A DNA stretch of 64,000 nucleotides from a bacterium (GCA_030539165.1 JAUNSO010000006.1:40242-104241), one strand, 5' to 3'. Shown: positions 3,201-62,601, counted from the stretch's first letter. Numbers and translations are program-made. The notes: a model not told the origin generated them from the letters alone.

Positions 3201-4619
3201 ATGGCACAGTTATGGGGCGGAAGATTTACAAAGGAAACGGATCAGCTGGTATATCAGTTCAATGCCTCTATTACGTTTGACCAAAAGTTTTACAGACAGG
3301 ATATAGAAGGCAGTATCGCTCATGTAGCCATGCTGCATAAACAGGGAATCCTGACGAAGGATGAGCAGGATCAGATCATAGAGGGACTGACAGGGATCCG
3401 GGAGGATATCGAAAACGGCACATTGCAGATCACGGAGGAATATGAGGATATACACAGCTTTGTGGAGGCCAATCTGACAGAACGGATCGGAGAGGCAGGC
3501 AAGAAGCTGCATACCGGCAGGAGCCGTAATGATCAGGTCGCTCTGGACATGAGATTGTATACACGTCTGGAAGTATTATATGTGGATGAGCTGGTCAATG
3601 ATCTGCTGAAGGTGATTTTAAAGATCATGGAGGAGCACCTCGATACATATATGCCCGGCTTTACACACTTACAAAAGGCACAGCCGATCACACTGGCACA
3701 CCATATGGGTGCTTATTTCGAAATGTTCAAGCGGGATCGCCTGAGACTGAAGGATATTTATCACAGGATGAATTATTGTCCGCTGGGAGCAGGTGCACTG
3801 GCAGGAACGACATATCCACTTGACAGAGCCTATACAGCGAAGCTGATGGGATTTGACGGACCGACGCTGAACAGCATTGATTCTGTAGCTGACAGGGATT
3901 ATGTGATAGAGTTTTTGTCTGCATTGTCTACCATTATGATGCACCTGAGCCGCTTTTCAGAGGAAGTCATCATCTGGAATACAAATGAGTATCAGTTTGT
4001 AGAGATTGATGATGCATACAGTACCGGAAGCAGTATTATGCCGCAGAAAAAAAATCCTGATATTGCAGAGCTGGTCAGAGGCAAGACCGGACGTGTCTAC
4101 GGAGCCTTGATGAGCATCCTGACGACCATGAAAGGACTGCCGCTTGCATATAATAAAGATATGCAGGAAGATAAAGAGCTGACATTTGATGCAATTGATA
4201 CAGTCAAGGGATGTCTGGCTTTATTTACAGGGATGCTGGATACGATGAAGTTCAATCAGGCACGTATGGAGCAGAGTGCGAAAGGCGGATTTACCAATGC
4301 CACAGATGCAGCAGATTATCTGGTTGGGAAGGGTGTACCGTTCCGTGATGCACACGGTATCGTTGGAAGACTCGTATTATATTGCATAGATCATCAAAAG
4401 TCACTGGATGATATGACGATAGAAGAGTATCAGGCGATCAATCCTGTATTTGATGAGGATATTTATGATGCCATCAGTCTCGAAACCTGTGTCAATAAAC
4501 GTCTGACAACAGGAGCACCCGGCAGGGAGGCTATGCAGTCAGTAATAGAAGCATGTAAAAATTATCTTGCACATGACTGGCAGGATGAAGATAAAGAGGA
4601 GAGAAAAAAAGATGAGTGA
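3201..4619 (+). CDS. argH: Argininosuccinate lyase
   Basis: MAQLWGGRF... N-terminus, with fumarate-lyase family motifs (GSSIMPQKKNPD, HTGRSRNDQ). GGAGG lies upstream of ATG 3201; the ORF-track start at 3144 is an upstream extension. Confidence 0.95.
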   Translation: MAQLWGGRFTKETDQLVYQFNASITFDQKFYRQDIEGSIAHVAMLHKQGILTKDEQDQIIEGLTGIREDIENGTLQITEEYEDIHSFVEANLTERIGEAGKKLHTGRSRNDQVALDMRLYTRLEVLYVDELVNDLLKVILKIMEEHLDTYMPGFTHLQKAQPITLAHHMGAYFEMFKRDRLRLKDIYHRMNYCPLGAGALAGTTYPLDRAYTAKLMGFDGPTLNSIDSVADRDYVIEFLSALSTIMMHLSRFSEEVIIWNTNEYQFVEIDDAYSTGSSIMPQKKNPDIAELVRGKTGRVYGALMSILTTMKGLPLAYNKDMQEDKELTFDAIDTVKGCLALFTGMLDTMKFNQARMEQSAKGGFTNATDAADYLVGKGVPFRDAHGIVGRLVLYCIDHQKSLDDMTIEEYQAINPVFDEDIYDAISLETCVNKRLTTGAPGREAMQSVIEACKNYLAHDWQDEDKEERKKDE

Positions 4620-5694
4620 AAAATTAAGAGCAGGTATTTTAGGAGCAACCGGTATGGTCGGACAGAGATTTATTTCGCTGTTAGAGAATCATCCGTGGTT
4701 TGAGGTGACTCTGGTGGCAGCAAGCCCGAGAAGCGCCGGAAAGAGTTATGAGGAAGCTGTAGGCGGCAGATGGAAGATGACAACTCCCATGCCTGAGGCA
4801 GTGAAAAAGATGATCGTTAAAAATGTAAATGATGTCAAGGAAATTGCATCTCAGGTTGACTTTGTATTCAGCGCAGTGGATATGACAAAGGATGAGATCC
4901 GTGCAATCGAAGAGGAATATGCAAAGGCAGAGGTTCCTGTAGTGTCAAATAACAGTGCACACAGATGGACTCCGGATGTACCTATGGTCGTACCGGAACT
5001 GAATCCTGAGCACATGGAAGTCATCGAATTTCAGAAGAAGAGACTGGGAACCAAGAGAGGCTTTATCGCAGTGAAACCGAACTGCTCGATTCAGAGCTAT
5101 GCGCCGCTGCTTGTCGCATGGAAGGAGTTTGAACCCACAGAGGTCGTAGCAACTACCTATCAGGCAATCTCAGGTGCAGGCAAGACCTTCAAGGACTGGC
5201 CGGAGATGGTCGAGAATGTGATTCCCTATATCGGTGGTGAGGAAGAAAAGAGCGAGCAGGAGCCGCTCCGTATCCTTGGAAAAATAGAAAATGGTGTCAT
5301 TGTAAAAGCTGATTCACCGAAGATTACGACACAGTGCATCAGAGTACCTGTACTGAACGGACATACCGCTGCTGTATTTATTAATTTTGCAAAGAAACCG
5401 ACCAAGGAGCAATTGATCGAGAAGATGGTGAACTTCAAGGGACTGCCGCAGGAACTGAACCTGCCCAGCGCACCAAAGCAGTTCATCAGATATATGGAAG
5501 AGGACAATCGTCCGCAGGTCGTTCTGGATGTCGATTATGAGAATGGAATGGGAATCAGCATCGGCCGTCTCAGAGAAGACAATATCGGACTGTTCGATTA
5601 TAAATTTGTGGGTCTTTCCCACAACACGGTACGCGGAGCAGCCGGTGGAGCCGTATTGTGTGCAGAGCTGCTGAAAGCAAAAGGATATATTTAA
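4612..5694 (+). CDS. asd: Aspartate-semialdehyde dehydrogenase
   Basis: N-terminus LRAGILGATGMVGQRF (NAD(P) fold), an active-site-like KPNCSIQ and a C-terminal SHNTVRGAAGGAV. ATG 4612 overlaps the argH stop by 8 nt. Confidence 0.92.
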   Translation: MSEKLRAGILGATGMVGQRFISLLENHPWFEVTLVAASPRSAGKSYEEAVGGRWKMTTPMPEAVKKMIVKNVNDVKEIASQVDFVFSAVDMTKDEIRAIEEEYAKAEVPVVSNNSAHRWTPDVPMVVPELNPEHMEVIEFQKKRLGTKRGFIAVKPNCSIQSYAPLLVAWKEFEPTEVVATTYQAISGAGKTFKDWPEMVENVIPYIGGEEEKSEQEPLRILGKIENGVIVKADSPKITTQCIRVPVLNGHTAAVFINFAKKPTKEQLIEKMVNFKGLPQELNLPSAPKQFIRYMEEDNRPQVVLDVDYENGMGISIGRLREDNIGLFDYKFVGLSHNTVRGAAGGAVLCAELLKAKGYI

Positions 5695-5723: not shown

Positions 5724-7463
5724 ATGGATGAACTGAGATATCAGCTTGATTTATTAAATGCTTTAAATGAAAAACTGAACGGAAATGATCGGATCTATAA
5801 AATGATATCCGACATTTCCGGCTATTCTTATATTTACATTAACTTCATGGAAGAAACGACCGAGATGCTCGGCTGCTGGGATGAGGTACTGGGCGAGAGA
5901 ATCGGCAACAGTCTGGATCAGGATCGTATGATGTCCTATATTCATGAGGACGATCGTGAAAAATTCAAAAATACAATTGCAGATATGCGCAGAAACCAGG
6001 CTGAGGATGCAGTCTGTGAGTTCAGGACAGCGCAGGGAAAAAACTGGGTCGAGTGCCGGTCACATGTATTTTACAATGACTATATGGAAGCGCAGGAGCA
6101 GATCATGTGTTTCAGGCAGACCACCAAGGAACGTGCACAGAATGAAGAATTGCGTTATCTGGCCTATAACGACTCGCTGACAGGCTTGTATAACCGCAAT
6201 TATTTTGTGAAATGTCTGCGTGATTTTTTGGAAAAGGCTGAATCAGAGAATGCAAATGTAGCATTGATGTTTGTGGACATAGACGATTTTAAAAAGATCA
6301 ATGACAGTCTGGGACTCCTGTTTGGTGATGAACTGGTACAGGACTTCGGGTTATTCATTAAGAGTCTGCAAAATGATCATATCATTGCAGGAAGATTCGG
6401 AAGTGATGTGTTCTGCATTGCCATATATGATCCTTATGGTTCCAGAAGTGTAGAAATGATATACAGAAATATGCATGACAGACTGCGTAAGCCGTTTGTC
6501 CTGAGCAACAAAGCGGAGATCGTCTTCAGTGTCAGCGTCGGTGTTGCAACCTATCCGGAGGCCGGTAATACAGCACTTGAGCTGATTAAGAATGCTGAAA
6601 TTGTATTGTTCCGCGCAAAAGAGACAGGCAAGAATAACCTGCAGTATTTTGAGAAGGATATCTTAAATGAGTTTTTGGATAATGTCACGATAGAACAGCA
6701 GTTGAAAAGTGCTGTGGATCATGAGGACTTTCTATTGTATTATCAGCCGCAGTTCTATGCAAACAGTGGGAAACTAAGAGGCGTAGAGGCACTGATCCGG
6801 TGGCCGGGCGCTGATGGCAAGTTTATCAGCCCGACTGACTTTATCCCCATTGCGGAAAAGAATGGTGCAATCATACCAATCGGTAACTGGGTCATGAAGG
6901 AAGCGTTAAGGGTATATGCCGCATGGACTGCCAAATATGAATATCCGGTCGTGCTGTCGATCAACATATCGGCAATACAGTTAAAGAAAGACAACTTTAC
7001 AGATCAGCTGCTGCATCTGATCAATTTGTATGATATCAATCCCAAGATGCTGGAGCTGGAAATTACAGAGAGTATTTTTATTGATGATTTTGAAGAGGTA
7101 ATCGATAAGATGAAATCACTGCGTATGCTTGGAATCAGAGTATCGCTGGATGATTTCGGGACAGGCTTCTCATCTTTATCTTATTTAAAGGATCTGCCGA
7201 TCGATACGCTCAAGATTGATAAATCCTTTATCGATACAGCGATTCATGACCGTTCTACGAATATCATAACGGAATCAGTTGTCAATATGGTGAAGAAGCT
7301 GGGACTGGAAACGGTCGCAGAAGGAGTAGAGACGCAGGAACAGTATGATTTCCTGAAAAAAATCGAATGTGATAACATTCAGGGCTTCCTGACAGGAAGA
7401 CCAATGACGAAAACAGACATTGAAAAGCTTCTGCTGGAAACTGAAAAAGAGCTCGGGGAATAA
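5724..7463 (+). CDS. PAS-GGDEF(degenerate)-EAL protein, phosphodiesterase type
   Basis: The GGDEF position reads RFGSDVFCI (GSDVF). EAL motifs are intact (EALIRW, ELEITES, VSLDDFGTGFSSLSYL, LKIDKSF, VAEGVETQEQ, QGFLTGRP). Start taken at ATG 5724 (MDELRYQ). Confidence 0.88.
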   Translation: MDELRYQLDLLNALNEKLNGNDRIYKMISDISGYSYIYINFMEETTEMLGCWDEVLGERIGNSLDQDRMMSYIHEDDREKFKNTIADMRRNQAEDAVCEFRTAQGKNWVECRSHVFYNDYMEAQEQIMCFRQTTKERAQNEELRYLAYNDSLTGLYNRNYFVKCLRDFLEKAESENANVALMFVDIDDFKKINDSLGLLFGDELVQDFGLFIKSLQNDHIIAGRFGSDVFCIAIYDPYGSRSVEMIYRNMHDRLRKPFVLSNKAEIVFSVSVGVATYPEAGNTALELIKNAEIVLFRAKETGKNNLQYFEKDILNEFLDNVTIEQQLKSAVDHEDFLLYYQPQFYANSGKLRGVEALIRWPGADGKFISPTDFIPIAEKNGAIIPIGNWVMKEALRVYAAWTAKYEYPVVLSINISAIQLKKDNFTDQLLHLINLYDINPKMLELEITESIFIDDFEEVIDKMKSLRMLGIRVSLDDFGTGFSSLSYLKDLPIDTLKIDKSFIDTAIHDRSTNIITESVVNMVKKLGLETVAEGVETQEQYDFLKKIECDNIQGFLTGRPMTKTDIEKLLLETEKELGE

Positions 7464-7474
7464 TAGGTGAAAAT

Positions 7475-8842
7475 ATGTTACTCGGAAGAACTGCCGAACT
7501 GAAATATCTAAAAAACAATTACGAAAAAGAGGGAAGTCAGCTGGTGATCCTTTATGGACGTAAAAATATTGGCAAGACGGAACTGATCAAAGAGTTTTGT
7601 TCAGATAAGTCCTATTCGTATTATCTTGCAAAGCAGTGCTCCGAGTATGAACAGATCTGTCAGTGGAGCAGTGAGCTGTCAGAGGAAAGAAGTCACCAGT
7701 CGCCTGTGGAGCGCAGATTTGACGCTATTTTTCAGACCATTATAGAAGTAAAATCACAAAAGCGTGTCATTGTGATTGATGAATTCCAATACATAGTCAA
7801 GAACAGTGATATCTTCATGGATGAGGTCGTCAGACTGATTCATGATAAATGGAATAACCAGCCTGTCATGATCATCATGTGTTCTTCTGCCATCGGATGG
7901 GTTGAGAATTCCATGGTGTCCAGAATGGGTGAAAATGCATATGAGATTACCGGATTATTGAAGATCAGTGAGCTTAAATTTTTGGATGTTGTCAGAAGAT
8001 TTCCGAAGTATTCCATGGAACAATGCGTAGAGGCATATGCGATTCTCGGTGGGGTGCCGGGACTGTGGAGATATTGGAATGAGGAACTTGATATACAGGA
8101 AAATATACAGCAGAATATCATCAGACCCGGGTTGTTTCTGAGCGAGGAAGGCAGTCGTTATGTAGCAGAGGAACTACGGGAAACATCGGTTTATCATACC
8201 ATACTGGCAACCATAGCATCAGGAAAATCCAAATTAAATGATCTTCATAACCATACAGGATATAATCGTGCTAAAATCAGTGTATATCTCAAAAATCTGA
8301 TTGAACTGGAAATTGTCGAAAAGGTATTCTCCTACGACACAGCAGGTAAAGACAATACACAAAAGGGCATCTACAAAATCAGCAACCACTATGTACATTT
8401 CTGGTTCAAATATATCTTCCCCCATGTGTCCAGACAGGGAATGATCAGTGAAGAGCAGTTCTATAATCAATATATAGCACCTTCCTTCCGGGCATATACG
8501 GCGACATACTTTACCAAGGTATGCTCTGAGTATCTGGATCTGATGAATCAGATGGGAAAGCTGCATTTCAAATATGAAAAAAGTGGTTCCTGGGTCGGCA
8601 AAGTAGGTACGATTGATATCGTGGCACAGGACGAAGAAGGTCATACTCTGGTGGGTATGTGCAGCTGGGAAAGAAGTCTGATGACCTATAATGATTATGA
8701 ATGGCTGCTGTTCTGCGTAGAAAAGGCAAAGTTAAATGCAGATTATATTTATTTGTTCTCAGTTGACGGATTTGACGAGAAGTTAAATCTGGAAGCAAAA
8801 GTGAAGAAAAATATCATTTTAATAGATATTTCTCAATTATAA
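7475..8842 (+). CDS. AAA-type ATPase of the archaeal-ATPase/DUF234 kind
   Basis: Walker A-like LYGRKNIGKTELI, Walker B-like VIVIDEFQY, and a C-terminal region typical of DUF234-containing ATP-binding proteins. Function unknown. Confidence 0.65.
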   Translation: MLLGRTAELKYLKNNYEKEGSQLVILYGRKNIGKTELIKEFCSDKSYSYYLAKQCSEYEQICQWSSELSEERSHQSPVERRFDAIFQTIIEVKSQKRVIVIDEFQYIVKNSDIFMDEVVRLIHDKWNNQPVMIIMCSSAIGWVENSMVSRMGENAYEITGLLKISELKFLDVVRRFPKYSMEQCVEAYAILGGVPGLWRYWNEELDIQENIQQNIIRPGLFLSEEGSRYVAEELRETSVYHTILATIASGKSKLNDLHNHTGYNRAKISVYLKNLIELEIVEKVFSYDTAGKDNTQKGIYKISNHYVHFWFKYIFPHVSRQGMISEEQFYNQYIAPSFRAYTATYFTKVCSEYLDLMNQMGKLHFKYEKSGSWVGKVGTIDIVAQDEEGHTLVGMCSWERSLMTYNDYEWLLFCVEKAKLNADYIYLFSVDGFDEKLNLEAKVKKNIILIDISQL

Positions 8843-53731: not shown

Positions 53732-53767
53732 CACCCCTGAGTCTATCGGATTCAGGGGTGTTTTGTT
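53732..53767 (+). terminator. Intrinsic terminator after pckA
   Basis: CACCCCTGA (53732-53740) pairs with TCAGGGGTG (53752-53760), followed by TTTTGTT. Confidence 0.85.
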
Positions 53768-53852
53768 GACTTATGAAGTTGAAAATGATATAATTCCATT
53801 TGCTATTGTAATGCCGGAAAGAAATGGATGTCCGGTATTGACGGAGATGAAT

Positions 53853-55376
53853 ATGGTGACGAATATATTAGAATATCTGGAGTTATCTGCCGGACGTTTC
53901 CCTGAAAAAACAGCATATTTTGATGAAGAGTCAGAGTATACCTATGGAGCAGTCCTGAAGGATGCAAAGGCAGTCGGTACAGCACTTGCTGCACTTGATC
54001 AGACCGGAGTTCCGGTCGTAATCTATATGGAAAAAACACCGCTTAATATGGCGGCATTCTGGGGTGTGCTGTACAGCCGTAATTTCTATGTGCCTGTAGA
54101 CACGAAGATGCCCGGATACCGTATCAGTCTGATCCAGGAGAATCTGGATCCGTATGCGGTCATTACTGATGAAACAAACGCAGAGGCGGCGAGAGAGAAG
54201 TTCCAGGGACGAAACATACTGCTGTTTTCAGACCTGATACTGACCATACCGGATGACCGGCTGCTGCAGGATATACGAAACAGCGCTCTGGATACCGATC
54301 CGATTTATGTACTGTATACATCGGGATCTACAGGAGTGCCAAAGGGTGTCGTGGTATGCCATCGCTCCTTGATAGATTATGTAGAGCACTTTTGCAGAGA
54401 GGTAGGAATCACAGATCAGGATGTGATAGCAAATCAGGCACCATTTTACTTTGATGCATCCCTGATTGATATTTACTGTACACTCTACAGTGGTGCTACG
54501 ATGGGAATCGTTCCAGCTGATTACTTTACCATACCGATCAAGCTGTTACAGTTCATGCAGGATCATCACATCACTACGATACGATGGGTTCCGTCTGCCA
54601 TGAAGATGATCTCCACACTCAGAGGCTTTAAAACCTTACGGCCGGATGCACTGCGCAAGGTGATATTCGGAGCGGAGGCTATGCCGACAAAGTGTTATAA
54701 CTACTGGAGAGACAACTATCCGGAGGCAGTGTTTGTACAGATCTACGGTCCGACTGAGATTACAGGTGTATGTACTTATTATATAGTAGACAGAGAATTC
54801 ACAAATGATGAGACGATTCCGATCGGCAGAGCATTTGGGAATACAGAGGTATTTCTGCTGGATGAACAGGATCGTTTGATCAGAGAAGCCAATACCATCG
54901 GAGAGATCTGTGTGAAGGGCACCTGTCTGGCACATGGATATTACAATGCGTCAGAGAAGACGAGTGAGGTATTTACCCAGAATCCGCTGCAGCATCACTA
55001 TCCGGAGAGAATCTACAGAACGGGAGATCTGGCACAGTATAATAATCTGGGAGAGCTGATCTTCTCATCCCGTAAGGATTCCCAGATTAAGCATATGGGA
55101 CACCGGATCGAGCTTGGAGAGATAGAAGCAGTCGTGAACAGTCTGCCGGGTATCCGTACGGCATGTTGTCTGTTCCATAAAGAGAAAGAGAAGATCGTAC
55201 TGTTTTATGAATCTGATGAGTACGATGATGTTACACTGATAGAGGCGCTGCAGGAAAAGCTGCTGCGGTATATGATGCCAAATGTGATGCACAGGCTGGA
55301 ATCACTGCCTCAGACACAAAATGGCAAGGTAGACAGAATGAAATTAAAAAGACAATACCTTGAGGGAGGAGAATAG
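53853..55376 (+). CDS. DltA-like amino-acid adenylation enzyme (carrier-protein ligase)
   Basis: ANL-superfamily motifs LYTSGSTGVPKG, NQAPFYFDASLIDIY, YGPTE, YRTGD and NGKVDR. About 507 aa, as in DltA. The start is set after the pckA terminator (GGAG upstream of ATG 53853). Confidence 0.85.
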   Translation: MVTNILEYLELSAGRFPEKTAYFDEESEYTYGAVLKDAKAVGTALAALDQTGVPVVIYMEKTPLNMAAFWGVLYSRNFYVPVDTKMPGYRISLIQENLDPYAVITDETNAEAAREKFQGRNILLFSDLILTIPDDRLLQDIRNSALDTDPIYVLYTSGSTGVPKGVVVCHRSLIDYVEHFCREVGITDQDVIANQAPFYFDASLIDIYCTLYSGATMGIVPADYFTIPIKLLQFMQDHHITTIRWVPSAMKMISTLRGFKTLRPDALRKVIFGAEAMPTKCYNYWRDNYPEAVFVQIYGPTEITGVCTYYIVDREFTNDETIPIGRAFGNTEVFLLDEQDRLIREANTIGEICVKGTCLAHGYYNASEKTSEVFTQNPLQHHYPERIYRTGDLAQYNNLGELIFSSRKDSQIKHMGHRIELGEIEAVVNSLPGIRTACCLFHKEKEKIVLFYESDEYDDVTLIEALQEKLLRYMMPNVMHRLESLPQTQNGKVDRMKLKRQYLEGGE

Positions 55377-55378
55377 AT

Positions 55379-55606
55379 ATGGAAAAATTAATGGAGTTAT
55401 TATCAGAGCTGCATCCGGAAGTGGATTTTGCAAGTGAGACAGGTCTGATTGATAAGAAAATACTGACATCCTTTGATGTCGTCAATCTGGTCGGAGAACT
55501 GATGGATGAGTATGATATTGAGATCAACGCAGAGCATCTGATCCCGGAAAATTTTAATTCAGCACAGGCAATCTTTGATCTGATTACCAGACTGGAAGAG
55601 GAATAG
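55379..55606 (+). CDS. DltC-like small carrier protein
   Basis: 75 aa, acidic. The phosphopantetheine-Ser context KILTSFDVVNLVGEL resembles DltC LLDSFGTVELL. Confidence 0.8.
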   Translation: MEKLMELLSELHPEVDFASETGLIDKKILTSFDVVNLVGELMDEYDIEINAEHLIPENFNSAQAIFDLITRLEEE

Positions 55607-55622
55607 GTAGGGCACGAAAACC

Positions 55623-57209
55623 ATGTCTTTCGTTTCATTGAGATTCGCGGCTTTTGTGATAGGTGTACTGCTCGTATATTATCTGGTTCCAAAGAAGATA
55701 CAGTGGTTTGTACTGCTGTGTGCCAGTTATCTGTTTTATTTTGCAACAGGCTTTGGCAACGGGTTTTATATTGTGGTTACAACAGTAACAACATTTTTCT
55801 GTGCTATTTTGATTTCTGAAGAGCATAAACATCAGAAGGAATATCTGCAGGAACATAAGGAACACCTTACAAAAGAAGAAAAAAAGTCATATAAATCACA
55901 GGTAAAGAAGAGACAGCGGGTCATATTGATCCTGTGTCTTGTTTTGAACTTTGGAATTCTTGCATTTTTGAAATACAATGATTTTATCATATCAAATCTC
56001 AACTTGTTCAGACTGACCTTTTATGGCGAGACTGACTTCATTGATTTCTTTATGCTGCCGCTTGGAATATCATTTTATACATTCCAGTCCATGGGTTATC
56101 TGGTCGATGTTTATTACGGTAAGTATGATGCTGACAGGCATTTGGGTAAATTCGCTCTGTTTGTGTCATTTTTCCCACAGATCATTCAGGGCCCCATCAG
56201 CAGATTTGGAGAGCTGTCAAAAGAGTTATATGATGGACAATCATTTTCATGGTATGCAATCAAAAGCGGTTTTGTGAGAATCGTCTGGGGACTGTTTAAG
56301 AAGTTGATCATTGCTGATCGTGTCGCTGCCTATGTCAAGCTGGTGGCTGATCCGGTCAATGAATATGAGGGGCTCTATGTCCTGATTGCAGTATTTCTAT
56401 ACTCCATGCAGATTTATGCTGATTTCTCCGGAGGCATTGACGTGTCGATCGGAGTGGCAGAGATGCTCGGCATCAAAATGACGGAGAACTTTGAACGTCC
56501 TTTCTTCTCTAAGAGTATATCGGAGTATTGGAGAAGATGGCATATCACACTGGGTACATGGTTCAAGGACTATATCTTCTATCCCTTGTCCATATGCAAA
56601 CCTGTTATTAACCTTGGCAAATGGACCAAGAAGAATATCCATGAGGGTCTTGGTAAGAGGCTGCCTATTTATCTGCCGATGCTTGCTGTATGGGCACTGA
56701 CCGGTGTATGGCACGGCTCTGAAAACAGATATGTGGTATGGGGACTGCTGAACTGCTTTTTCATTATCCTCGGTGAGGAGTTTGCGCCGGTATCCGGCAG
56801 ACTGAGAGAGTATTTCAAGGTGAATCCCTCAGGTACAGCCTTTAAGGCCTTTCAGATCTTTAGGACATTCTGGCTGATGGCATTGCTTCGGGTATTTGAT
56901 ATTGCACCGAGTATTAAGGCAGGATTTCGCATGATTTTCAATCTGTTTCGAAACTGGAGCAGCTTCAGCAGAGAAGAGTTTTATTCTATGGATCTGCCAA
57001 AGGATGATCTGAAAATCGCATTGATTGCCTGTCTGGTGATACTGATCGTGAGCCTGCTTCAAAGAAAAAAGAGTATCAGAGAGCGTCTGTTTGCACTGCC
57101 GGGAGCCGTACAGGTGGTATTGTGCACTTTATTTGTATTGTCTGTAGCAATCTACGGATATTATGGCTTTGGATATGATGCAAGCCAGTTTATATATATT
57201 CAATTTTGA
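55623..57209 (+). CDS. MBOAT-family membrane O-acyltransferase (DltB/AlgI-like)
   Basis: About 11 TM helices. Conserved segments FYTFQSMGYLVDVY, FWRRWHITLGTWFKDYIF and GVWHGS (conserved His). Confidence 0.88.
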   Translation: MSFVSLRFAAFVIGVLLVYYLVPKKIQWFVLLCASYLFYFATGFGNGFYIVVTTVTTFFCAILISEEHKHQKEYLQEHKEHLTKEEKKSYKSQVKKRQRVILILCLVLNFGILAFLKYNDFIISNLNLFRLTFYGETDFIDFFMLPLGISFYTFQSMGYLVDVYYGKYDADRHLGKFALFVSFFPQIIQGPISRFGELSKELYDGQSFSWYAIKSGFVRIVWGLFKKLIIADRVAAYVKLVADPVNEYEGLYVLIAVFLYSMQIYADFSGGIDVSIGVAEMLGIKMTENFERPFFSKSISEYWRRWHITLGTWFKDYIFYPLSICKPVINLGKWTKKNIHEGLGKRLPIYLPMLAVWALTGVWHGSENRYVVWGLLNCFFIILGEEFAPVSGRLREYFKVNPSGTAFKAFQIFRTFWLMALLRVFDIAPSIKAGFRMIFNLFRNWSSFSREEFYSMDLPKDDLKIALIACLVILIVSLLQRKKSIRERLFALPGAVQVVLCTLFVLSVAIYGYYGFGYDASQFIYIQF

Positions 57210-57223
57210 GGTCGTGGAACCAT

Positions 57224-58297
57224 ATGAAAGTTCAGTTAAAGAAAATCTTTATCGTTTTGCTGGAAATTGCATTTATCATCTGTGCAGTATTATTTACGAA
57301 CAAATTGTTTATGCCGAAATATGTTTCTGAAAACCAGGACGGCAGGATCGCAGAAGAGTTTTATGATGAAAAGCTGCCGTTAGATGTGGTTTTTGTAGGT
57401 CCCAGCACGATCTATAATGCCGTTTCACCGGTATGGCTTTGGGAGCAGTACGGATTTACCTCCTATGTGCGTGGGAATGCTTCTCAGACAATGTGGCAAT
57501 CCTACTATATGGTTGCAGATGCAATACAGTATAACAAGCCGAAGGTCGTAGTCGTAGACGTGACATTTATCCGGCATGCTGACGATTTTGTGGAGGAGCC
57601 GTCTAACCGTAAAGCACTGGATGGCATGAAGCTGTCCAAGGTAAAGCTGGATGCCATCAAGGACTCAAAGGCTGAAGTGGAAAAAACGGGAGATTATCTG
57701 TTCCCTTTATTTCGTTTTCACTCCAGATGGAACGAGCTGTCGATGGAAGATCTGATATGGTGCTTTAAGGACGATCCGGTTACTTACAACGGACATCTGA
57801 TGCAGTTTGGAACTTCCCCTACCGCATTTGGCTTCACAGGCTATGATGCAAGAGAAGAGTATATGCTAGGTGATAAAAGTGTTGCCTATTTGAGAAAGCT
57901 GATCGAACTGTGTCAGGATAATGACATCACAGTCATCTTGATGAAGACACCTGCAGGAACGCCAAACTGGGCACTGCAGTATGATGCACAGATTATGACT
58001 GTTGCGTCTGAATACAATGTAGGCTATGTCAATTTTGATATGCTGGCTGATGAGATGGGACTGAACTACAAGGCTCATTCACCGGATGAGGGCAGACATC
58101 TGAACACTGTCGGAGCAGAGATCTTTACTAATTATCTCGGACAGATACTGAAAACATCCTGTTCCACACTGATCGATCATAAGTGGGATGCACACTATAC
58201 AGATGTATGGAACGAAAAGGTTTCTCGATACGAATATGATAAGGCTGTCGGTATGGTTGAATATGCTGCAGAACTCGAAAAAATCAGAAAAGAGTGA
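57224..58297 (+). CDS. Membrane-anchored extracytoplasmic SGNH/DltD-like protein
   Basis: N-terminal TM. A block-I-like VVFVGPSTIYN and a block-V-like SPDEGRHLNTVGAEIF. The ORF track begins at TTG 57206, overlapping the MBOAT stop. Confidence 0.6.
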   Translation: MKVQLKKIFIVLLEIAFIICAVLFTNKLFMPKYVSENQDGRIAEEFYDEKLPLDVVFVGPSTIYNAVSPVWLWEQYGFTSYVRGNASQTMWQSYYMVADAIQYNKPKVVVVDVTFIRHADDFVEEPSNRKALDGMKLSKVKLDAIKDSKAEVEKTGDYLFPLFRFHSRWNELSMEDLIWCFKDDPVTYNGHLMQFGTSPTAFGFTGYDAREEYMLGDKSVAYLRKLIELCQDNDITVILMKTPAGTPNWALQYDAQIMTVASEYNVGYVNFDMLADEMGLNYKAHSPDEGRHLNTVGAEIFTNYLGQILKTSCSTLIDHKWDAHYTDVWNEKVSRYEYDKAVGMVEYAAELEKIRKE

Positions 58298-59526
58298 ATC
58301 GCATGGATGAAAAAAGAAAAATATCCCTGGACAGGGCAGAGGAACTAAAAGACTCTATCGGGAATTTCCTCGAATTCAAACAGAAGTTTTTGGAGGAGAT
58401 GGAGACGAAGAGAAATATCAAACGAAAAGAGCATAAACAGGCGATTCTGGATTATTTTGAAGCGGATGAGAATGACTGGAATGACTGGAAATGGCAGATC
58501 AGAAACAGAATCAGCTCCGAGGAGATTCTGGGTCATTTTCTGCACCTTTCTGAAGAAGAAAAAGAAACAATCCGTAATATTTCTCACAAATACAGATGGG
58601 CAACGACACCGTATTATCTGTCCCTGATGGATTTCAACAATCAGAACTATCCGATTAACAAGATGGCCATTCCCTCTGTTTTTGAGAATGATGAGAGAGG
58701 CAAACTGGATCCGATGAAGGAGGAGTACACCAATCCTGCACCCTGTATTACCAGAAGATACCCGAATCGTCTGATCATCAATGTGACGAGTTCCTGTCCG
58801 ATGTTCTGCAGGCACTGCCAGCGCAGAAGGCGGATCGGTGAAGTGGATCAGCATGCAAAGTGGGAGGATATCGAGGCAGCCATCGAGTATATCCGCCAAA
58901 ACGAGGAGATACGTGATGTGCTGATTACAGGCGGAGATCCTTTGACCCTGTCCGATGAGACACTCGAAAAAGTAATTTCAGGCGTATATCATATTCCGCA
59001 TGTGGAAATCATAAGAATAGGTACAAGGGTTCCGGTGACGATGCCGCAGCGTATTACAGATGATCTGGCAAATATGCTGAAAAAATACCATCCACTGTTT
59101 ATCAATGTACAGTTTAATCATCCGGGAGAAATGACAGAAGAGTCCAAAGCAGCCTGCAGCAAGCTGGCTGATGCGGGTATTCCTCTTGGAAATCAGATGG
59201 TATTCCTGCGTGGAGTCAATGACAATAAATATGTTGTGCAGCTGTTAAATGAAGAATTGCTGCAGGCACGTGTCAGACCGTATTATATCTTTCATCCGAA
59301 GCAGGTTGTCGGAACTAAGCATTTTCAGATTACGGTGGATGAAGGTCTTCGTATTATGAAGTATTTGAGAGGACATACATCCGGTCTGGCGATACCGCAG
59401 TATATCCTGAATGCATCAGGTGGTCTCGGCAAGGTGCCTCTGCTGCCGAAGTACATCGAGGAAAGTGATGAGACTCATGTGAAATTAACGACATGGGAAG
59501 GCAAGGAAGTCTGTATCTTTTATTAA
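58294..59526 (+). CDS. KamA-family radical-SAM amino-acid 2,3-aminomutase with a glutamate-2,3-aminomutase-type signature
   Basis: WNDWKWQIRNRI, radical-SAM CPMFCRHCQRRR, LITGGDPL, and a PLP-Lys region. Reads FHPKQVVG and ILNASGGLGK where lysine 2,3-aminomutase (as I recall it) has YQCDLSLG and VVDAPGGGGK. The start overlaps the upstream stop (GTGA). Confidence 0.85.
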   Translation: MNRMDEKRKISLDRAEELKDSIGNFLEFKQKFLEEMETKRNIKRKEHKQAILDYFEADENDWNDWKWQIRNRISSEEILGHFLHLSEEEKETIRNISHKYRWATTPYYLSLMDFNNQNYPINKMAIPSVFENDERGKLDPMKEEYTNPAPCITRRYPNRLIINVTSSCPMFCRHCQRRRRIGEVDQHAKWEDIEAAIEYIRQNEEIRDVLITGGDPLTLSDETLEKVISGVYHIPHVEIIRIGTRVPVTMPQRITDDLANMLKKYHPLFINVQFNHPGEMTEESKAACSKLADAGIPLGNQMVFLRGVNDNKYVVQLLNEELLQARVRPYYIFHPKQVVGTKHFQITVDEGLRIMKYLRGHTSGLAIPQYILNASGGLGKVPLLPKYIEESDETHVKLTTWEGKEVCIFY

Positions 59527-59657: not shown

Positions 59658-59854
59658 TAGATTTCCTGGGGTGTTCGATAATTCTTGTATTTTGAACCTA
59701 CATTTACTTTAAACGGGATTCCTATATTACCGTCTCCTATGTCAGGCCTCATTTGCAGTGGAAGGCAGAAGAGCGGCTGCGGTCACCCACCTAGCATTAG
59801 CTAGGAGTCAAAAAACAAGAACCGGCATCTCTGGGATATTCACAAAAGAGGAAA
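59658..59854 (+). ncRNA. Candidate structured RNA / cis-regulatory leader upstream of the SpoIID-domain gene (unclassified)
   Basis: Long-range helices: 59661-59666 pairs with 59848-59853, and 59681-59694 pairs with 59807-59820 (14 positions, 1 mismatch). Local hairpin at 59789-59804. Followed by a terminator. Confidence 0.3.
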
Positions 59855-59882
59855 AGCAGTCTCGACAGAGGCTGCCTTTTAT
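59855..59882 (+). terminator. Intrinsic terminator/attenuator 35 nt upstream of the SpoIID-domain gene start
   Basis: GCAGTCTC (59855-59862) pairs with GAGGCTGC (59867-59874) with one G-T. The loop is GACA, followed by CTTTTATT. Confidence 0.6.
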
Positions 59883-59917: not shown

Positions 59918-61384
59918 ATGAACAAGCTCAAAGTGATATTCATTCTTACAGGACTGTTGTTTCTGATCTTTTTGCTGCTGCAGCAAAGAAAACCCGCAAA
60001 AGAAGAAATACAGACGGAAGAACCGCCTGCTATCATAAAAGAAGAGCCTGACAGGACAGCAGAAAGAATCAGGGTTGTATTAAAGGATTACTCCGAGAAT
60101 GATATCCATCATCAGGAGGTGACTTTGATTCCGGATACCTCCTATGAGGTGATCAGAGACTCTCAATCGGTTTTACATGAAGCTGGTGAGCCTGTCACGG
60201 TATGCTATACAGCCGGTGACAGCCAGTACAGCCTGTTCCTGATTCCATCAAAAGAAACTGCCAGAACAGCGATCCCATCCCTGCAAAGAAGTCAGGGGAC
60301 GCCGTTATACAGGGGGATGTTTGAACTGCAATGTACAGAAAACGGCATTGTAATCATCAATGATCTGCCGCTTGAGGAATATCTCTATGCTGTAGTACCG
60401 AGTGAAATGCCATCAGATTATCCGTTTGAAGCCCTGAAGGCACAGGCAATCTGTGCAAGAACATACGCAGTCAAGCAGATGCAGTACTCAAAATATACAG
60501 ATCTGGGTGCAGATGTAGATGACAGTACGAGCTATCAGGTCTATAACAATACATGTGAAAGTGACGCTGTCAACAGGGCTGTTGATGCAACAAGAGGGAA
60601 GGTTGCAACCTATGACGGCAAGGTGAAGGATACATATTACTTTTCAACATCCTGCGGATATACGACTGACGGAGGCTCATGGAAAGAGGATTCAAAAGAG
60701 GATATGTCCTATCTGACCTCCAGAAAGCTGTCTGAGGAAGCAATAGAGGCCTGGGCGGTACAGGGTGAAACAGACAACATCACAGAGGAAGACTTTGAAG
60801 CGTTTATCCGATCCGCAGATGCAGCTGACTATGAAAGCAAGGAACCATGGTATCGATGGACGATGCAGATCGAGGGTGCGGCACTGGGGAGGATAGATGA
60901 AAAAATCAAAGAACGGTATCAGGTGAATCCTGATAAAATCCTGACTCAAAACGAGAAAGGTATTTATCAGTCCGTCAAACCTCCGGAAATAGGAGAGCTC
61001 CAGGATATCCAGGTCGCCATGAGAGGGGACGGCGGTGTGATAGAAAGTTTGATTATCGTGGGAAGCCATGCTACAATACAGATATTAACAGAGTATAATG
61101 TCCGGTATGTGATGTCGACAGAGGGAGCCTCCATCAGAAGACAGGACGGGTCAGATACAGCCTGTGGCATGCTGCTTCCGAGTGCATTTTTTACGATGGA
61201 TATAGAATATCAGGATGACAGGCTGGAAAGTATGATGCTCTATGGCGGCGGCTATGGGCATGGTACCGGCATGTCACAGAACTGTGCCCGCAGCATGGCA
61301 CTCAAGGGGATGACAGCAGAAAATATCATCAGGAGCTTTTATCAGGAGCTTGAAATAGGAGATTTATCAGCAGATATGCTGTGA
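59918..61384 (+). CDS. SpoIID/LytB-domain protein (lytic transglycosylase/amidase-enhancer family)
   Basis: Signal/TM N-terminus. SpoIID motifs LEEYLYAVVPSEMP, EALKAQAICARTYA, YFSTSCGYT and GHGTGMSQ. AGGAGAGG lies upstream of ATG 59918. Confidence 0.85.
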   Translation: MNKLKVIFILTGLLFLIFLLLQQRKPAKEEIQTEEPPAIIKEEPDRTAERIRVVLKDYSENDIHHQEVTLIPDTSYEVIRDSQSVLHEAGEPVTVCYTAGDSQYSLFLIPSKETARTAIPSLQRSQGTPLYRGMFELQCTENGIVIINDLPLEEYLYAVVPSEMPSDYPFEALKAQAICARTYAVKQMQYSKYTDLGADVDDSTSYQVYNNTCESDAVNRAVDATRGKVATYDGKVKDTYYFSTSCGYTTDGGSWKEDSKEDMSYLTSRKLSEEAIEAWAVQGETDNITEEDFEAFIRSADAADYESKEPWYRWTMQIEGAALGRIDEKIKERYQVNPDKILTQNEKGIYQSVKPPEIGELQDIQVAMRGDGGVIESLIIVGSHATIQILTEYNVRYVMSTEGASIRRQDGSDTACGMLLPSAFFTMDIEYQDDRLESMMLYGGGYGHGTGMSQNCARSMALKGMTAENIIRSFYQELEIGDLSADML

Positions 61385-61407
61385 TCAGAAACAGCCTGGA
61401 GGATTTC

Positions 61408-62277
61408 ATGAAGGAAAAGATAAAGAGAGTATATGATTTGTTTTATGGTTTTTCCGCGGAGATGCAGGAGGATAATGTCCGGGCATTTGCATCCAGTGCT
61501 GCTTTTTTTGTCTTTTTATCACTGATCCCTTATGTGATACTGATCCTTGCCATCATCCCGTATACCCCGCTGACCAAGGCAGATGTACTGGCAGCGATAG
61601 TGGAAATACTGCCCAATGCACTGGATGGGTATGCCATTATGATCATCGACCAGTTATACGCGAATACATTTGCCGCCTTGTCCATTTCCATCATAGCGGT
61701 TGTATGGTCATCGGCACAGGGCTTTTTATCCATTACGACGGGACTGAATGCGATATATGGCATCCATGAAAAGCATAATTACTTTTTCATGCGTGCAAGA
61801 GCTGGTGTCTATACAGTGATCCTTGCTGTGATCATGGTGGCTTCCCTGATCTTGTCCGGTTTTGGAAAAACATTAAGAAAGTTCGCTGAGGAAAAGCTGA
61901 TATCGTTACCGGTACCGTTTCAGACCATCATTGATTTTCGCATTATTCTGACGCTGGCGATCATGACACTGATGTTTACACTGATGTACACGACACTGCC
62001 TTATCAAAGACAGAAGTTTAGACAGCAGATTCCGGGGGCTCTGTTTACGGCTGTTGTATGGAGCATTTACTCATGGGCGTTTTCACTGTATATCAGTAAC
62101 TTTAATGCATTCAGCATGTATGGGAGTCTGACAACGGTAGTGATCATCATGCTGTGGCTTTATATGTGCATGTACATTATGTTTGTAGGTGCGCAGCTGA
62201 ATGATTATTTTCATGAGGGACTGGAAAAGCTGCATCAGAAAAGACATTTCAAGCACGATCAAGGCAGAAAAGGGTAA
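61408..62277 (+). CDS. YihY/BrkB-family integral membrane protein
   Basis: Six hydrophobic helices with a family-typical N-terminus (AFASSAAFFVFLSLIP). GGAGGA lies 6 nt upstream of ATG 61408; the ORF track starts at GTG 61381. Confidence 0.8.
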   Translation: MKEKIKRVYDLFYGFSAEMQEDNVRAFASSAAFFVFLSLIPYVILILAIIPYTPLTKADVLAAIVEILPNALDGYAIMIIDQLYANTFAALSISIIAVVWSSAQGFLSITTGLNAIYGIHEKHNYFFMRARAGVYTVILAVIMVASLILSGFGKTLRKFAEEKLISLPVPFQTIIDFRIILTLAIMTLMFTLMYTTLPYQRQKFRQQIPGALFTAVVWSIYSWAFSLYISNFNAFSMYGSLTTVVIIMLWLYMCMYIMFVGAQLNDYFHEGLEKLHQKRHFKHDQGRKG

Positions 62278-62319: not shown

Positions 62320-62601
62320 AATTGAAACAGATCTAAATGCTATGAAGGTGCAGGCAGTCATTCTGCCGCAGAATATAATCTTCTTACAGAGAGGGGAAGC
62401 CACCGGCTGCAAGCTTCCTTAAGTTCAGATGATATTCGACATTCACACCGGAGCAGTTCTTCTGAAGGCTTATGTGCTTGTAGGAAGAGACGTAAGATGC
62501 ACGTTACGCATGAGAATGAGTGCTTAAGACCATGGTCTTAGGAATCTGGGTGGTACCGCGAATAGATTCGTCCCTCTGCTAATTTTAGTAGAGGGATTTT
62601 T
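62320..62601 (+). promoter_or_regulatory. T-box riboswitch leader, Phe-specific
   Basis: Conserved T-box sequence AATCTGGGTGGTACCGCG (62543-62560). Stem-I AGAGA element at about 62388. Candidate specifier UUC (62424-62426) followed by A. Terminator 62572-62595 plus a T-run. Confidence 0.85.

Follow-up and report, generated by a model that had tools for sequence, protein, structure and literature searches.

D-alanylation by the Dlt system is, to our knowledge, the only mechanistically characterised case in which a carrier protein feeds the acylation of bacterial envelope polymers, and it is both a drug target and a determinant of antimicrobial-peptide resistance. A DltA/DltC-like pair also operates in Vibrio cholerae, where AlmEFG places glycine onto the lipid A of this Gram-negative organism; AlmG is not an MBOAT and no SGNH partner is involved. 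Here we describe a cassette of five genes, A-C-B-D'-E, which occupies positions 53853-59526 of a 64,000-nucleotide (nt) stretch of bacterial DNA (GCA_030539165.1 JAUNSO010000006.1:40242-104241; "the window" below means this whole stretch). The cassette encodes a standalone adenylation enzyme (A), a small carrier (C), an MBOAT (B), a membrane-anchored SGNH-fold protein (D') and a KamA-family aminomutase (E). With moderate confidence, we propose that the five genes are a single operon whose products attach beta-glutamate to a component of the envelope outside the cytoplasm. An initial annotation made from the sequence had placed five consecutive + strand genes here, and all five open reading frames (ORFs) were recovered at the positions it gave.

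Two further bodies of work frame the comparison. A 2024/2025 study reported that DltB hands D-alanine (D-Ala) to the microprotein DltX, on a tyrosine of its C-terminal FXYXXF motif, whereas acetyl-CoA MBOATs (PatA, AlgI and others) have FXYXXF fused at their own C-terminus, carried on two extra transmembrane (TM) helices that are absent from DltB; these acetyl-CoA MBOAT pathways have no carrier protein. [quoted passage not shown]

The aminomutase gene E (58294-59526, + strand) encodes 410 amino acids (aa) if translation begins at GTG 58294 or, as is likelier, 407 aa from ATG 58303. The protein passes the KamA subfamily model TIGR00238 (335 bits against a cutoff of 199), and its best curated model is that of glutamate 2,3-aminomutase, TIGR04368, at 605 bits, which is below the cutoff of 650. 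It has the radical-SAM CxxxCxxC motif, with its Fe-S cysteines, at residues 168-175, an Arg equivalent to R134 of lysine 2,3-aminomutase (LAM) and the pyridoxal phosphate (PLP) lysine Lys380. In alignment with LAM (2A5H), Asp293 and Asp330, with which that enzyme binds the epsilon-amino group of lysine, are replaced by Lys336 and Asn373, respectively, which confirms the K/N signature that the initial annotation had read in this protein. Lys and Asn at these two positions are the signature of glutamate specificity, which reportedly goes back to the work of Ruzicka and Frey in 2007 on glutamate 2,3-aminomutase.

We used an aminomutase alignment in a species-level genome scan, took the best 80 of 506 relatives, and compared their loci to the window proteins by tblastn. 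CxxxCxxC, the PLP lysine and the carboxylate-binding Arg are present in the window enzyme and in all 80 relatives; with the Arg134 equivalent conserved in this way, the substrate is more likely to be a free amino acid than a carrier-tethered one. The K/N signature is found in 79 of the 80, including all 45 loci outside the Lachnospiraceae. Enzymes linked to the cassette score 591-605 bits with TIGR04368, compared with 670-707 bits for the non-cassette homologues; they are at least 61% identical to one another and 45-58% identical to informative non-cassette homologues. The sequence comparison thus places the cassette-linked aminomutases in a distinct sub-clade just outside the curated family, still much closer to the Glu model than to those for Lys or Arg.

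The adenylation enzyme A (53853-55376, + strand, 507 aa) passes the amino-acid adenylation domain model TIGR01733, with 333 bits against a cutoff of 317.4, and falls far below the DltA equivalogs (TIGR01734, 276.2 bits against 559.85; NF003417, 281.9 against 476). Its matches to DltA structures in the Protein Data Bank (PDB), at 164-176 bits, are no better than those to adenylation domains of nonribosomal peptide synthetases (NRPS), and the beta-amino-acid adenylation enzymes score similarly to both (5JJQ, 178 bits; 8YYR and 7DQ5, 166-169; 5JJP, 157).

The initial annotation had proposed that the specificity code of A be extracted, and we did so by alignment to GrsA (1AMU) and Bacillus subtilis DltA (3E7W), using PDB-verified sequences and numbering. 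At GrsA positions 235/236/239/278/299/301/322/330/331/517 the code reads D201 A I R244 I G273 I G V K492. As DAIRIGIG(V/I)K it is invariant in the 29 A proteins of what we call class-1 cassettes, at identities down to 56%. Asp201 and Lys492 are the equivalents of Asp235 and Lys517. The Cys that selects D-Ala in DltA (in the motif MFCGEV, position 301) is Gly273 in the window (codon 54669-54671) and Gly in all 29 proteins, just as the earlier pairing of IFGAEA with MFCGEV had implied, while position 278 is Arg in all 29 (R244 in the window, codon 54582-54584). Together these residues support the earlier view that the pocket is probably not specific for D-Ala. In NRPS domains that activate Asp, a Lys at position 278 binds the side-chain carboxylate; the amine-bearing carbon of beta-glutamate carries -CH2-COO-, the same arm as in Asp, and so an Arg at 278 would be expected.

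What most directly connects the pocket to the aminomutase is a sister cassette found through distant homologues of D', for which the best 80 of 548 relatives were classified by neighbourhood. In a metagenome scan this cassette was common in gut and bioreactor samples. Its genes run in the order transglutaminase-core surface protein, Asp/Glu-family racemase (TIGR00035), A, C, B, D' and a lipoprotein-like protein of 184-193 aa (L089, L090 and L099-L170; for instance, L090 2130-9727), and its MBOAT has FXYXXF. Its proteins are 47% (A), 45% (B) and 39% (D') identical to those of the window, and the D' nucleophile is Cys (GDCE) in 57 of the 57 sequences that fit the motif pattern, with three others outside the pattern. 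The A code, from 31 sequences, is DA(K/R)C(A/C)(G/A/V)LG(M/V/I)K; a basic residue at position 239 is a Glu-type hallmark of adenylation codes. The A code therefore switches with the tailoring enzyme, R278 accompanying the aminomutase and K/R239 the racemase, as would be expected if the flanking enzyme supplies the substrate of A. This covariation between sequences is, in our view, the strongest evidence that the substrate of A is made by the flanking enzyme and would be an acidic amino acid in both cassettes, and beta-glutamate is, in our judgement, the probable substrate in class 1.

The sister cassette, or class 2, is likely a system for acylation with D-Glu or D-Asp (or cysteate), and it appears to be undescribed. 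It has several variants: some copies lack the racemase, and L156, L157 and L164 lack both A and the carrier. In L176 (1231-2994) a protein of 587 aa, of which the first ~335 residues fit the D' profile, also bears a transglutaminase-core domain, with carrier and MBOAT genes following; this fusion physically links D' and transglutaminase activities that are separate neighbours in the sister cassette. In L172 (1268-9090) the gene after that for D' (501 aa) encodes a YkuD L,D-transpeptidase fused to a Peptidase_S11 carboxypeptidase, 638 aa in all, which hints at peptidoglycan involvement. L172 was considered as a third substrate class and set aside, as it has the class-2 A code, the Cys nucleophile and an upstream transglutaminase-like protein.

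There is little doubt in our minds that the five genes are a functional unit. Thirty-five of the 80 aminomutase loci are from Lachnospiraceae (63-95% identity to E), and all 30 with a readable upstream region have C-B-D' directly 5' of the aminomutase gene, usually as A-C-B-D'; the other five are interrupted by contig ends. This recurrence makes the arrangement more than chance. At the other 45 loci, which come from anaerobes outside this family (52-58% identity to E) and include Clostridium, Thermotogota, Desulfotomaculum relatives, Halanaerobiales and Syntrophomonadaceae, no cassette gene adjoins the aminomutase gene. The co-occurrence of K/N aminomutases with such genes thus holds within one Lachnospiraceae clade and does not extend across Clostridia. 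The order A-C-B-D'-E is shared by 24 non-redundant complete cassettes, in which the genes are separated by median gaps of 5-13 nt, and the cassette is present in at least one named strain record, bacterium C-53. At least five flanking contexts occur (pckA/6S/SpoIID, tyrS/YihY, Mbeg1/MCP, GreA/GGDEF-kinase and der-plsY-gpsA), and such variation indicates that the five genes travel as a unit. The adjacency of the aminomutase is accordingly not peculiar to this genome, nor does the median D'-E gap of 11 nt across the 24 cassettes leave room for an independent promoter of E, both of which are in keeping with the initial annotation. Across the same 24 cassettes the divergence seen in E follows that seen in A (r = 0.94; in a Mantel test r = 0.89, a value reached in 0 of 2000 permutations).

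The junctions in the window are tight as well: a gap of 2 nt between A and C, a gap of 16 nt between C and B, TTGA at 57206-57209 between B and D' and GTGA at 58294-58297 between D' and E. The initial annotation quoted these sequences exactly. Its two 4-nt overlaps, on the other hand, are in doubt, since they depend on TTG and GTG starts, and the lengths of homologues (357 aa for D', 407 aa for E) favour ATG 57224 and ATG 58303. With these starts the gaps before D' and E are 14 nt and 5 nt, respectively, and the tight packing is retained.

The remaining three proteins make up the transfer machinery. C (55379-55606, + strand, 75 aa) gives weak ACP family matches and only 20.9 bits with the DltC equivalog NF003464, for which the cutoff is 68. 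In its (D/T)SFD motif Ser31 (55469-55471) is the predicted phosphopantetheine serine, and the serine motif is kept across both cassette classes. B (55623-57209, + strand, 528 aa) matches Pfam MBOAT (PF03062) with 61 bits. DltB is its sole NCBIfam match, at 153.5 bits against the TIGR04091 cutoff of 375, and its alignment to DltB (6BUG) is confined to residues 146-417, the DltB core, at 25% identity. Within this core B keeps the catalytic histidine that all MBOATs have in common; it is His307, in WRRWHITL, and aligns to the histidine of DltB WHMSL. Beyond it B has two extra C-terminal hydrophobic helices (461-479 and 492-510) and ends in FIYIQF, an FXYXXF acyl-shuttle motif with Tyr525 that is encoded by the last six codons (57189-57206, + strand). 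F.Y..F stands at the exact C-terminus of 38 of 38 cassette MBOATs in a first survey and 58 of 59 in a second. Over its full length B is 31-34% identical to the MBOATs of carrier-free MBOAT-D' modules, as against 25% to the DltB core. What had been annotated as a DltB/AlgI-like MBOAT is therefore an MBOAT of the PatA/AlgI type with a fused FXYXXF, and not a DltB orthologue.

D' (57206-58297, + strand) is 363 aa long from TTG 57206, or, more likely, 357 aa from ATG 57224. Sequence searches returned a weak GDSL match and no Pfam or NCBIfam match to the DltD family. An AlphaFold model built from a 50-sequence alignment (pLDDT 92.5, pTM 0.91) has an N-terminal TM helix (residues 2-35) and an SGNH core, and Foldseek matches it to SGNH/GDSL hydrolases with probability 1.0; DltD and PatB are absent from its top 50 matches. 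The predicted triad is Ser67, Asp294 and His298, and among homologues position 67 is Ser or Cys while Asp294 and His298 are invariant. Of the "SGNH/DltD-like" label that D' first carried, the SGNH fold and the membrane anchor were upheld and DltD family membership was not.

D' also belongs to a large and apparently unnamed group of SGNH partners of MBOATs in Firmicutes. A word-indexed search with 209 relatives had made it look like a small family found only in Lachnospiraceae, a picture overturned by an exhaustive profile search in which the family comprises 13,159 representative clusters of MBOAT partners. Many of these relatives are ~490 aa long and are paired with carrier-free MBOATs, as in L174 and L177.

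The architecture is thus a hybrid, in which a Dlt-like donor module (A plus carrier) sits on a PatAB-like MBOAT-SGNH pair with a fused shuttle, and this accounts for both the missing dltX and the long MBOAT; no DltX-like small ORF occurs in the unit, its 5' region or the 3' spacer of the window. The donor module has probably been grafted onto an acetyl-type MBOAT-SGNH pair rather than having descended from dltABCD, in which case the likeness to Dlt would be convergent. The original description of the locus as "dlt-like" is apt as a functional analogy; it does not hold as homology, given that all four proteins fall below the Dlt cutoffs or give no match, that dltX is missing and that the MBOAT is of the PatA/AlgI type.

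On this basis we propose the following pathway. The radical-SAM/PLP enzyme E would convert free L-glutamate to beta-glutamate (3-aminoglutarate), which A would adenylate and thioesterify to the phosphopantetheine arm of C; in the A pocket the amino group would be held by Asp201 and the distal carboxylate by Arg244 (position 278). B would then take the acyl group from the carrier at the cytoplasmic face and pass it, via His307, to Tyr525 of its own FIYIQF shuttle and so to the outer face. There D' would receive the group onto Ser67 and deliver it to a hydroxyl of an extracytoplasmic acceptor, for which a teichoic-acid-like polymer, another glycopolymer and peptidoglycan are candidates. That the target is extracytoplasmic we consider likely; to name teichoic acid as the acceptor would be no better than a guess.

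Several observations weigh against this proposal. The evidence is computational for all components and leads by inference to the substrate, to each of the transfer steps, to the topology and to the acceptor. The cassette-linked aminomutases, with 591-605 bits, do not reach the TIGR04368 cutoff of 650, and a shifted specificity is therefore possible. The role of Arg278 as a carboxylate binder is suggested by analogy to Asp-activating NRPS codes, and code positions 330/331 are ambiguous, as MAFFT and manual alignment disagree (GV or VC), although no argument rests on them. Two class-1 A-C-B-D' cassettes (L106 and L114) have the same A code with no adjacent aminomutase, so that adjacency is not obligatory, and in one sub-clade a trpS-like gene stands between D' and E, with A displaced or absent nearby. 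Lastly, the evidence is drawn mostly from related metagenome-assembled genomes of one family, and vertical inheritance accounts in part for the conservation of the cassette and for the correlation of A and E distances.

The alternative that survives these comparisons best, though we think it unlikely, retains the beta-glutamyl donor chemistry and directs it to an acceptor other than a teichoic-acid-type polymer: peptidoglycan, a secondary wall polysaccharide, a membrane lipid or a surface protein. D' is not DltD-like, and the MBOAT stands nearer to the PatA/AlgI type, enzymes known to act on peptidoglycan and polysaccharides. The neighbours of related cassettes hint at peptidoglycan or surface structures as well, in the form of SpoIID/LytB in the window, YkuD/Peptidase_S11 in L172, the transglutaminase-core proteins of class 2, the D'-transglutaminase fusion of L176 and the glycosyltransferase and LPG_synthase_TM genes next to L087. 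The varying flanks of class-1 cassettes, by contrast, would fit a ubiquitous acceptor without naming one. As to L087 (1-4024), it is the most divergent intact class-1 cassette and adjoins genes for an epimerase, a nucleotidyltransferase, a 628-aa LPG_synthase_TM protein, a GT2 glycosyltransferase and a HAD hydrolase; this neighbourhood is possibly a glycopolymer locus and, if so, a clue to the acceptor.

Alternatively, A-C-B-D' might transfer an acidic alpha-amino acid, be it L-Glu, L-Asp or D-Glu made elsewhere, while the aminomutase is chemically separate and merely co-regulated, producing beta-glutamate as an osmolyte or nitrogen store. The A pocket does retain the alpha-amino-acid hallmarks Asp235 and Lys517, L106 and L114 combine the class-1 code with no neighbouring aminomutase, and aminomutases outside the Lachnospiraceae function without the cassette. 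Yet L106 and L114 are the only exceptions among readable loci to the pairing of the class-1 code with E; the sister class, with its racemase, needs a different code; and E, whose clade is specific to the cassette, diverges in parallel with A (r = 0.94), while the cassette genes are tightly coupled. For these reasons an alpha-amino-acid substrate strikes us as rather improbable.

It is also conceivable that the product of the cassette is a small molecule, secreted or in the membrane, for example a lipid or natural product that contains a beta-amino acid, with no envelope modification at all. An aminomutase together with a standalone A and a standalone ACP is the established logic of macrolactam beta-amino-acid starters, and A scores like beta-amino-acid adenylation enzymes such as 5JJQ. 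However, no polyketide synthase (PKS), NRPS condensation, thioesterase or tailoring genes lie near any locus examined, and an FXYXXF MBOAT with a membrane-anchored SGNH protein is a signature of envelope polymer acylation, so that we give this option very little credence. Least credible of all is an ordinary, divergent dlt operon for D-alanylation with the aminomutase as a passenger, which has in its favour the module logic of A, carrier, MBOAT and extracytoplasmic hydrolase-fold protein and the presence of DltA and DltB among the named NCBIfam matches, and against it the four proteins far below the Dlt equivalog cutoffs, the change of the D-Ala-selecting Cys to Gly, the invariant pocket Arg, the lack of dltX with a shuttle fused to the MBOAT, an A no closer to DltA than to NRPS domains and aminomutase linkage in 30 of 30 informative loci. 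Acylation with beta-glutamate thus remains our preferred reading.

The unit is bounded on both sides in the window. On its 5' side lies the intrinsic terminator of pckA (53732-53760, + strand; a 13-bp stem with seven GC pairs, followed by TTTTGTT), a feature the initial annotation had recognised. Shortly after it, at 53766-53794 (+ strand), is the best promoter-like site of the region, TTGACT and TATAAT separated by 17 nt with an upstream TG, which, from its 11/12 match to the consensus, is likely the cassette promoter. A GGAG ribosome-binding site at 53842-53845 favours ATG 53853 as the start of A. The cassette has a GC content of 43.7%, close to the 44.2% of the window, which suggests that it was not recently acquired. 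The 390-nt spacer noted after the unit does exist; it is not empty, however, as it holds a 6S RNA gene (ssrS; 59660-59841, + strand; Rfam RF00013, 68.1 bits against a gathering score of 46.4), a neighbour outside the cassette that forms its 3' boundary and is followed by a terminator-like hairpin at 59856-59875. A 6S RNA gene lies downstream of the aminomutase in L001 (11307-11489), L009 (11331-11512), L014 (11318-11504), L015 (11295-11480) and L016 (11290-11471) as well, that is, in five of seven related loci scanned, indicating that the synteny of aminomutase and 6S RNA is ancestral in the group.

Further 3', a gene for a YihY/BrkB-family membrane protein (61381-62277, + strand) follows the 6S RNA, shortly after the aminomutase; such a gene stands just 3' of the aminomutase, after 6S RNA and with or without SpoIID, in L012, L015, L017, L019, L020, L026, L031, L036 and L037. 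Upstream of pheS the window has a T-box leader (62333-62578, + strand) that at 85 bits is just below the gathering score of 93, a threshold that the orthologous T-boxes of L001, L009 and L014 exceed.

Related loci carry additional genes in and around the cassette. A bona fide tyrS (407 bits) adjoins it in 16 loci, either 5' of A or 3' of E; in L001, for instance (4159-5379), the tyrS stop is 1 nt from the A start. The trpS-like gene, of 369 aa, is found in L016 (8716-9822), in L019 (8871-9980, with gaps of 72 and 20 nt) and also in L010-L013, L018 and L092; it passes the trpS equivalog (227 against 177 bits) with HLGH and KMSKS intact, and in L016 no A gene occurs within 10 kb. We considered a role for these genes in the pathway (e.g., the replacement of A in L016), and both are probably housekeeping genes kept in synteny. 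Two genes stand between A and C in L019 (945-5008), one for a HAD-like protein of 704 aa and the other for a protein of 650 aa that has a weak GH43-like match, with the same lineage represented at L013 (1-891); between B and D' L019 has an inositol-monophosphatase-family gene (7005-7778). In L106 (3313-14263) and L114 the cassette is followed by butyrate-pathway genes (thl, crt, hbd and bcd), and in L106 the gene for a 733-aa PTPS_related/DUF6044 membrane protein overlaps the start of A. A Treponema metagenome-assembled genome (L063, 5566-15790) has a K/N aminomutase in a surface-polysaccharide locus with dTDP-rhamnose and ABC-transporter genes, two genes from an MBOAT and a DUF1574 protein; as an independent link between aminomutase and MBOAT it was judged too weak, having neither A nor carrier and an unrelated gene between.

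In the literature that was searched, no paper connects aminomutases or beta-glutamate with MBOATs, with DltA or with teichoic acids, and none connects aspartate racemase with MBOATs. The initial annotation knew of no dlt-type system with such a substrate, and to this extent we agree; a DltA/DltC-like pair that does not use D-Ala exists nonetheless in AlmEFG, with glycine. If the beta-glutamate reading is correct, the cassette would be the first carrier-protein-fed envelope acylation of this kind without D-Ala, and a beta-amino acid would become a possible envelope substituent. The MBOAT-SGNH platform would then be reprogrammable by swapping the tailoring enzyme and the adenylation pocket, and the hybrid of a carrier with a fused FXYXXF, which are two separate categories in the 2024/2025 study, would be explained. 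Beta-glutamate and glutamate 2,3-aminomutase would gain a bacterial role beyond that of osmolyte or polyketide precursor. Both the cassette and its sister occur commonly in Lachnospiraceae of the rumen and human gut and in their relatives, and the modification could therefore influence how the host immune system recognises these abundant commensals and how susceptible they are to phages or antimicrobial peptides. More tentatively, and at somewhat less than even chances, we speculate that the two cassettes are branches of a second, independently evolved class of carrier-dependent envelope aminoacylation which places acidic non-proteinogenic amino acids on the Gram-positive surface, one branch using beta-glutamate and the other, a widespread gut branch with a racemase, using D-Glu or D-Asp and coupled to transglutaminase-like surface enzymes. 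On that reading the zwitterionic adduct would add both free amine and free carboxylate handles, and its physiological logic would differ from charge neutralisation.

Set beside the described systems, the cassette borrows from several of them. With Dlt it shares a standalone adenylation enzyme that loads an amino acid on a small carrier, an MBOAT working through an acyl-tyrosine of FXYXXF, and a membrane-anchored SGNH-fold deliverer; it differs in its gene order A-C-B-D', in a shuttle that is fused to the MBOAT on two extra helices in place of DltX, in a dedicated aminomutase that would replace the need for D-Ala, and in an adduct predicted to be zwitterionic whereas that of Dlt is cationic. 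An MBOAT with a fused C-terminal FXYXXF and a single-pass SGNH partner are likewise features of the PatA/PatB type (also AlgI/AlgJ, WssH/WssI and PatA1/PatB1), but PatAB uses acetyl-CoA and no carrier, whereas the cassette encodes A, the carrier and a tailoring enzyme, conserved together, and the transferred group is predicted to be aminoacyl and not acetyl. The AlmEFG system offers a precedent for envelope modification by a DltA/DltC-like pair without D-Ala, from which the cassette differs by its MBOAT and SGNH protein and its predicted beta-amino acid. E has in common with Eam, the glutamate 2,3-aminomutase of Clostridium difficile, the KamA fold, CxxxCxxC, the PLP lysine and Lys/Asn at the LAM Asp sites; unlike Eam and other TIGR04368 members, the cassette enzymes form their own clade and are operon-linked to an acylation machine. 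In macrolactam loading, too, a mutase or aminomutase makes a beta-amino acid that a standalone adenylation enzyme loads onto a standalone carrier. There, however, the product enters an actinomycete PKS with decarboxylation and extension, while in the cassette, which belongs to an anaerobic Firmicute and has no PKS, the carrier would feed an MBOAT-SGNH pair.

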